NCBI RefSeq assembly: GCF_041248615.1
Contig: NZ_CP158426.1
Direction: 5' to 3' (one strand)
DNA: 64,000 nucleotides
Origin: Escherichia coli
GTDB taxonomy: Bacteria; Pseudomonadota; Gammaproteobacteria; Enterobacterales; Enterobacteriaceae
This document shows positions 21,200 through 21,405 of this stretch, piece after piece (within the stretch, counting starts at the first letter, position 1; the number at the start of each line of letters is the position of its first letter). Position numbers and translations under genes: made by a program. The notes under the pieces are model-generated. The model was not told the origin of the DNA, did not search any database, and saw only the letters and a list, made by a program, of their open reading frames with translations.

Positions 21200-21224
21200 C
21201 CTGGTTAAGCAAATTTGGTGAATT

Positions 21225-21236
21225 GTTAACGTTAAC
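21225..21236. promoter_or_regulatory. candidate CscR operator, copy 1 (perfect palindrome GTTAACGTTAAC)
   Basis: 12-bp perfect palindrome in the cscA-cscK divergent promoter region; a second identical copy lies 64 bp away. Confidence 0.5.
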
Positions 21237-21288
21237 TTTTATAAAAATAAAGTCCCTTACTTTCATAAATGCGATGAATATCACAAAT

Positions 21289-21300
21289 GTTAACGTTAAC
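21289..21300. promoter_or_regulatory. candidate CscR operator, copy 2 (perfect palindrome GTTAACGTTAAC)
   Basis: Identical 12-bp palindrome, flanked by TGTGATCGAATATGCATG which resembles a CRP half-site. Confidence 0.5.
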
Positions 21301-21405
21301 TATGACGTTTTGTGATCGAATATGCATGTTTTAGTAAATCCATGACGATTTTGCGAAAAAGAGGTTTATCACTATGCGTAAGTCAGATGAATTTAAGGGA
21401 AAAAA

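Follow-up and report, generated by a model that had tools for sequence, protein, structure and literature searches.

In the lac arrangement O3-CAP-O1, an auxiliary operator lies upstream, the main operator overlies the core promoter, and a CRP site is found between the two operators, which are in helical phase; they are spaced 92 bp apart, and their repressor LacI forms a tetramer through its C-terminal helix. The operators of CytR are weak, CRP is needed for CytR to bind, and the CRP sites of these complexes are about 52–53 bp apart. In general, LacI-family operators are even palindromes centered on CG and usually 16–22 bp long; an operon typically has more than one site, and most sites are found 30–140 bp before the start codon of the regulated genes (PMC4052901).

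The closest described system is the csc regulon of Escherichia coli EC3132 and E. coli W (Jahreis 2002, J Bacteriol 184:5307; Sabri et al. 2013). According to PMC11251922, Jahreis et al. 2002 described two copies of a 12-bp inverted repeat in the cscA–cscK gap and proposed them as putative operators of CscR; the same source reports the repeats to be conserved in Citrobacter and Kluyvera, and names one of the two as the site of an up-mutation that raises cscA expression. A recurrent operator mutation that allows growth on low sucrose is also known (PMC3938415), and the descriptions differ in that cscA expression is up in the one source (PMC11251922), while the other speaks of a cscKB operator mutation (PMC3938415). 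PMC11251922 furthermore places a CRP site next to the cscA -35 and both operators around the cscA promoter, and two cAMP-CRP sites are counted in the csc region by PMC3938415. Both cscA and cscKB are repressed by CscR and both need cAMP-CRP (PMC3938415 and PMC11251922); the locus is derepressed by point mutations in one of the operators and by deletion of cscR (PMC3938415 among others).

In the literature searched, with the primary papers outside the search, we found neither an EMSA or footprint that shows CscR binding directly nor transcription start sites for cscA or cscK. Operator detail is absent from the other papers that mention CscR (PMC11382391, PMC12465659, PMC6599523), and a literature search for the 12-mer GTTAACGTTAAC returned only unrelated eukaryotic or viral primer sequences. 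The palindrome pair analyzed here is the already published pair of putative CscR operators and, as such, a rediscovery.

The csc locus

We refer to the whole 64-kb stretch of DNA as the window. Its segment 18300–23700 is 100% identical to E. coli chromosomes, where the RefSeq gene order is emrY, dsdA, a dsdX remnant, cscR, cscA, cscK, cscB, tRNA-Arg and yfdC. The regulator gene cscR (18754–19749, plus strand; 331 aa) is annotated by RefSeq as a LacI family regulator with the Pfam domains LacI HTH and Peripla_BP_1, and it is convergent with cscA (19757–21190, minus strand), a member of the GH32 invertase / sucrose-6-phosphate hydrolase family (RefSeq; Pfam Glyco_hydro_32N and Glyco_hydro_32C). 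On the other side of the control region, cscK (21406–22329, plus strand) encodes a PfkB-family fructokinase and cscB (22391–23638, plus strand) a LacY-family sucrose/H+ symporter of the MFS, both according to RefSeq and Pfam. The cscA/cscK intergenic region spans 215 bp (21191–21405) and holds both palindromes. The window thus contains the cscRAKB cluster of the EC3132 / W csc regulon, adjoining dsdA and argW, i.e. the same object without a sequence difference, and it possesses what defines the csc control region: cscR, cscA, cscK and cscB near argW and dsd, with two 12-bp inverted repeats as well as CRP sites in the cscA–cscK gap.

Some observations on the surroundings may be recorded here. 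An N-terminally truncated dsdX pseudogene (RefSeq; 18294–18512) separates dsdA from cscR, and a DUF4942 fragment of 50 aa (RefSeq; 23718–23870) separates cscB from tRNA-Arg; both are scars left when csc inserted at the recombination hotspot dsd/argW, which is known from the literature. CscR has a full-length match in the PDB, 6ndi_A ('Transcriptional regulator', 334 aa; E = 1e-113). In E. coli UTAK-5 (L136, NZ_CP157152.1), an IS21-like element of the IS100 family has inserted immediately to the right of CRP site 2, at the equivalent of about 21341 in the window; the insertion cuts cscK and cscB off the control region and leaves both operators and cscA intact.

Two identical palindromes and two CRP sites

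The 12-mer GTTAACGTTAAC is its own reverse complement and is built from two tandem GTTAAC units, each of them a recognition site of HpaI. A search of the whole 64-kb window yields two exact copies, at 21225–21236 and 21289–21300, and no third one; the gap between them is 52 bp, and their centers are 64 bp apart. An earlier note on this DNA had described two identical perfect 12-bp palindromes with this position and distance, and had read each half as an HpaI site; the exact search agrees on all of these points. Together with its flank, the left copy forms O1 (ATT + GTTAACGTTAAC, 21222–21236), 34 bp from the cscA start codon, and the right copy forms O2 (AAT + GTTAACGTTAAC + T, 21286–21301), 105 bp from the cscK start codon; both contain the exact palindrome. 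Measured from the centers, O1 is 40 bp away from the cscA ATG, while O2 is 111 bp away from the cscK ATG and 104 bp from that of cscA.

A single perfect 12-bp palindrome is nothing unusual in the window, which contains 16 of them compared to 16.5 +/- 4 in shuffled sequences. An identical pair of 12-mers less than 100 bp apart is found at this spot alone, and a palindromic identical pair did not occur in any of 200 shuffles. Eight further positions match GTTAACGTTAAC with two mismatches (2301, 4255, 13539, 14875, 29175, 40292, 41238 and 60723), so that exact and 2-mismatch matches total 10, versus 2.5 expected from the shuffles. The match at 2301 (GCTAACGTTAAT) is located outside any ORF of at least 150 aa; the other seven are inside long ORFs, and we do not consider the eight functional as further operators. 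Autoregulation of cscR by way of this motif was likewise dismissed, since the region upstream of cscR has no operator-like site at up to three mismatches.

Binding sites of CRP follow the consensus TGTGA-N6-TCACA. CRP site 1 (CRP1; TGCGATGAATATCACA, 21270–21285) agrees with 9 of the 10 core positions and is separated by 33 bp from O1 on its left and by 3 bp from O2 on its right; CRP site 2 (CRP2; TGTGATCGAATATGCA, 21311–21326) agrees with 7 of 10 in the window and follows 10 bp after O2. The centers of the two CRP sites are 41 bp apart, with the center of O2 lying 17 bp from that of CRP1 and 24 bp from that of CRP2. The earlier note had pointed out a CRP-like half-site by the second palindrome. 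Such a half-site is present, TGTGATCGAA at 21311–21320 being the left half of the weak CRP-like TGTGATCGAATATGCA; the main CRP site, however, is situated between the palindromes. In the window, CRP1 is stronger than CRP2, and it had gone unmentioned in that note.

Conservation across genera

A search of reference genomes seeded with the CscB protein, and thus unbiased toward the operator, gave nine loci from Escherichia, Citrobacter amalonaticus and five Rosenbergiella species. All nine possess both exact palindromes, 64 bp apart. The csc proteins of Rosenbergiella are 59–66% identical to those of E. coli (CscB 62%, CscR 65%), and the rightward gene in this genus is cscB, not cscK. In the ungapped alignment, the conserved positions are confined to ATT + O1, AAG at 21250–21252, the CRP site at 21270–21285, O2, and TGTGAT at 21311–21316. 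Within E. coli, the csc region is present at 95% identity or more in 2,662 out of 5,426 complete genomes, and the most divergent E. coli variants sampled have kept both operators.

In addition, metagenomes were scanned for two copies of GTTAACGTTAAC 37–67 bp apart (centers 49–79 bp), which produced at least 120 stretches; exact palindromes were demanded, and these data are therefore informative on spacing and context, not on operator invariance. Among the metagenome matches listed together with the reference loci, 89 out of 130 loci have the 64-bp spacing. The csc-like loci among the matches listed use only 62, 63 or 64 bp of the 49–79 bp scanned, and spacings of 62–64 bp are seen in three different architectures, two of which lack a good CRP1: that of L086/L091 has 62 bp, and that of L023 has 63 bp and a TATAAT downstream of the proximal operator.

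Nineteen non-redundant versions, less than 85% identical to one another, were selected from the matches listed for a sequence profile. All 19 have the layout O1, 33 bp, CRP1, 3 bp, O2, 10 bp, CRP2, and the conserved positions of the profile are confined to O1, a CTT island, CRP1, O2 and CRP2, while the rest varies freely. At O1, ATTGTTAACGTTAAC is invariant in 19 out of 19 of these listed versions; O2 is invariant in all versions and, in several lineages among the matches listed, is widened to the 18-bp perfect palindrome AATGTTAACGTTAACATT. From O1 to CRP1, the profile of 19 sequences shows a single conserved island, the CTT(T) island (21245–21252, minus strand; AAG at 21250–21252 on the plus strand), which is a possible -35 element (TTnnnn). 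In about 40 distinct csc-like inter-operator sequences among the matches listed, CRP1 has an identical position and 8–10 of the 10 core bases, with the O1–CRP1 gap being 32 bp instead of 33 bp in a few sequences; a perfect TGTGA-N6-TCACA occupies this site in other strains of Escherichia (L002, L003, L081). Similarly, TGTGAT begins exactly 10 bp after O2 in 19 out of 19 listed versions, and the core of CRP2 reaches up to 10/10 in relatives, with near-perfect full sites in distant lineages, e.g. TGTGATGGGAGTCACA (L016) and TGTGATCGATTTCACA (L109).

The regulator is conserved along with these sites. A cscR ortholog is found in every csc-like locus among the matches listed that is long enough, and the recognition-helix segment MTVSR of CscR is invariant in orthologs down to 47% identity.

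Two further observations deserve separate mention. One metagenome match (L074, 75–158) is a microsatellite-like run GTTAAC(GATAAC)n without a discrete operator pair. In one lineage (L140-L143; e.g. GCA_019049675.1, JAFMOW010000064.1), a csc-like unit of a LacY-like permease, a GH32 invertase and a CscR-like regulator with 60% identity adjoins an scr-type PTS cluster that comprises a PfkB kinase, a LamB-type porin, a PTS EIIBC and a second GH32 gene; the one LacI-family gene is located between the csc-like and the scr-type cluster and may serve both.

Probable operators of CscR and alternative explanations

The palindromes have the attributes of LacI-family operators: they are perfect, of even length and with a central CG (12 bp in GTTAACGTTAAC; 18 bp in AATGTTAACGTTAACATT of the relatives), the cognate regulator gene cscR belongs to the same locus, they are located upstream of the regulated genes within the range of 30–140 bp, and the islands are kept across orthologous loci together with the DNA-reading residues of CscR. 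We consider it very probable that they are operators of CscR, encoded by the adjacent gene, and that they form part of a fixed O1/CRP1/O2/CRP2 module. The earlier note had assigned them to CscR in the cscA/cscKB control region and had advised a comparison with the published operators; the assignment finds support, as far as sequence comparison and literature can tell, in the two 12-bp repeats described between cscA and cscK (PMC11251922, PMC3938415) and in the cross-genus conservation. A single CscR dimer would bind at each of the 12-bp cores, which have CG at their center, and sucrose or a product of its metabolism would free the operators from CscR.

Two readings dispense with CscR altogether. 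The palindromes could be due to chance or be non-regulatory DNA, such as duplicated HpaI sites, a cloning scar, or an RNA hairpin or terminator, as might be thought from the frequency of palindromes in the window, which matches that of the shuffles (16 and 16.5). This leaves unexplained why the palindromic identical pair never occurs in the 200 shuffles, why the pair is kept across genera while its flanks diverge freely, and why the csc region recurs in roughly half of the complete E. coli genomes; moreover, a loop-less 12-bp palindrome cannot make a stable hairpin, and the consensus scan of 21100–21500 revealed no terminator-like site. Chance is effectively refuted by the conservation, judged from the sequences compared, and we give this reading practically no credence. 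In the second reading, another LacI-family protein with an AACGTT-centered site (e.g. Cra/FruR or GntR/IdnR-like) binds the palindromes in place of CscR. A central AACGTT is common to several E. coli LacI-family operators, which counts for this alternative, as does the presence of the same 12-mer pair in unrelated metagenomic loci beside LacI-family genes with just 23–24% identity to CscR. Against it stand the cscR ortholog that accompanies the site wherever csc-type genes occur, the invariant CscR recognition helix that matches the invariant site, and the derepression of the locus upon deletion of cscR (PMC3938415 among others); another repressor appears highly improbable. As for the unrelated loci, six metagenome contigs (L029, L063, L082, L126, L013 and L125) contain 12-mer pairs at 55–74 bp without any csc genes, and their adjoining LacI-family genes are just 23–42% identical to CscR. 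The GTTAACGTTAAC site is apparently reused by unrelated LacI-family regulators.

Promoter placement and repression

On the minus strand, 21227 to 21222 reads AACAAT, a -10-like hexamer which overlaps O1 and is present in every lineage compared. It is the sole invariant -10-like hexamer across the 19 lineages and has a conserved TTnnnn 17–18 bp upstream. In the published putative placement, the cscA -10/-35 fall between the two operators, with O1 located at the start site. TATTTT or TATAAA is found at that -10 position in E. coli and Citrobacter, and no -10-like hexamer exists there in L055, L105, L128 and L071. The comparison favors a class I cscA promoter with AACAAT as its -10 and a start near 21215–21216; the class II promoter stays plausible in E. 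coli and Citrobacter, and we rank it lower because several lineages lack a -10-like hexamer at its position. Alternatively, ATT may be invariant simply because it belongs to an operator of 18 bp.

In the class I placement, CRP1 would be centered at about -61.5, O1 would cover -9 to -20 (-10/spacer), and O2 and CRP2 would be centered at about -78 and -102; the published (class II) placement would put O1 at +1 to +12 and CRP1 at about -41.5. O1 would lie on the core of the leftward, cscA-side promoter, where bound CscR would block RNA polymerase. O2, which is wedged between the CRP sites, would have another role: CscR bound there most likely hampers the CRP-dependent activation of both the cscA-side and the cscKB promoter.

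For cscKB, a candidate -10 region is TATCACTAT (21367–21375, plus strand). Escherichia, Citrobacter (as TATCAATGT) and Rosenbergiella have kept a TATCAC(T) some 30 nt ahead of the start codon, and lineages that have no rightward gene also lack the TATCACTAT-type element. CRP2, at about -61.5, appears to be the site used by the cscKB promoter. If TATCAC(T) is its -10, transcription of cscKB would start near 21380 and O2 would be placed at about -85, which is unusual for simple repression and would point to anti-activation, not occlusion, as the mode of cscKB repression. The comparative data suggest that O2 acts through CRP and not by occluding the cscKB promoter. The mirror-image AACTAT at the right edge of O2 was considered as cscKB -10 and discarded: it is conserved neither in Rosenbergiella nor in L012, and CRP1 would fall at about -32. 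A simple sigma-70 and terminator consensus scan of 21100–21500 gave no match; the lack of a sigma-70 match fits CRP-dependent promoters.

One unit or one operator per promoter

At least seven lineages have no divergent gene right of O2 (e.g. L035, L055, L071, L078, L080/L129, L122 and L124). The gene upstream runs in the same direction in these lineages and has a hairpin at its end, and the full four-site module is found with the same spacing before a single operon of a LacY-like permease and a GH32 invertase. Because the module is kept without a divergent gene, both operators and both CRP sites would belong to the leftward cscA-side promoter. Judged by this comparison, the operator pair is probably a unit of the cscA-side promoter and not a set of one operator per promoter, and the rightward promoter that Escherichia, Citrobacter and Rosenbergiella have for cscKB or cscB seems to have been added. 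The earlier note had seen one operator directed toward each gene, which is true of the geometry in E. coli but does not extend to the lineages that keep the pair without the second gene.

If the operators were independent, O1 alone would repress cscA and O2 alone cscKB, each by steric occlusion and without a functional link, in keeping with the fact that each palindrome is closer to one gene in E. coli. Yet both operators and both CRP sites persist, with spacing unchanged, where there is no divergent gene to repress; O2 is 105 bp away from the cscK start codon; and the sole cross-genus candidate for a cscKB -10 lies about 70 bp downstream of O2, so that simple occlusion by O2 is unlikely. Both operators are, furthermore, placed around the cscA promoter in PMC11251922. 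We regard independence as improbable. The opposite reading is a lac-like loop, which the earlier note had raised as a possibility: the CscR dimer at O1 and that at O2 would join, with the intervening 64 bp, including CRP1 and the cscA promoter, looped out and repression made cooperative. The distance corresponds to 6.1 helical turns and thus places O1 and O2 on the same face of the helix, the spacing is confined to 62–64 bp even in architectures without a good CRP1, and the layout is like that of lac O3-CAP-O1. However, residues 3–318 of CscR align to residues 5–313 of LacI (360 residues), and CscR ends at 331, about 13 residues further; the alignment reveals no counterpart in CscR of the LacI tetramerization helix (340–357). 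A loop of 64 bp would also be very tight, and the invariant 64 bp of most lineages is explained as well by two fixed distances, O1–CRP1 and CRP1–O2. Data on the oligomeric state or cooperativity of CscR were not found in the literature searched. A loop of this kind seems somewhat unlikely to us, and contact or cooperation of any sort between two bound CscR dimers is possible, though on balance doubtful. Tentatively, and with less than even confidence, we propose a joint reading of these data: a rigid module, base-exact from Escherichia to Rosenbergiella and in several metagenomic lineages, may at first have driven one permease-invertase operon, with the CscR and CRP dimers forming one assembly (O1 and O2 being bound cooperatively even without a LacI-type tetramerization helix, CRP being displaced or locked by CscR at O2, or both). 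Divergent transcription of cscKB would have come later, from a promoter that borrows CRP2 and O2, and the published cscA promoter would be off by about 20 bp, its -10 being AACAAT over O1.

Comparison with known systems

The csc locus is used to engineer sucrose-utilizing production strains. Derepression by mutation of cscR or the operator is already a standard step, and confirming the operators therefore adds little. The new content is modest: a base-precise module of four sites, its presence without a divergent gene, and an alternative promoter placement. The retention of the module without a divergent gene provides a modestly useful, testable design rule, and the module would represent a compact natural case of a dimeric LacI-family repressor and CRP sharing 100 bp of DNA. 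Relative to the published csc model, the comparative data suggest another placement of the cscA promoter, which may sit elsewhere than proposed, and a module that is older than the divergent arrangement.

A similar system is scr of pUR400 and Klebsiella (Cowan 1991; Jahreis and Lengeler 1993), in which ScrR, likewise a LacI-family sucrose repressor, has two operators, O1 and O2, at the scrY promoter. As described in PMC11251922, scr is like csc in that two inverted repeats bracket one promoter with an upstream CRP site, and it is unlike csc in that the repeats are 14 bp long and of other sequence, and in that the regulon is of the PTS type. The same source describes the CRP site as poorly conserved in scr, whereas both CRP sites of csc are conserved and fixed in position.

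In its layout, the csc module resembles a compressed lac O3-CAP-O1 arrangement. It differs from lac in the spacing of 64 bp, in the use of two identical perfect palindromes, and in a repressor without the tetramerization helix. The CytR-CRP complexes of deoP2, cdd and udp also have the site of a LacI-family repressor between two CRP sites, as is the case for O2 of csc, which is separated from CRP1 by 3 bp and from CRP2 by 10 bp. In contrast to the weak operators and the wider CRP spacing of the CytR system, O2 is a perfect palindrome and the CRP centers are 41 bp apart; the likeness to CytR-CRP sandwiches is only superficial, and the interaction of CscR and CRP at O2 would more likely be competitive than cooperative, unlike that of CytR.
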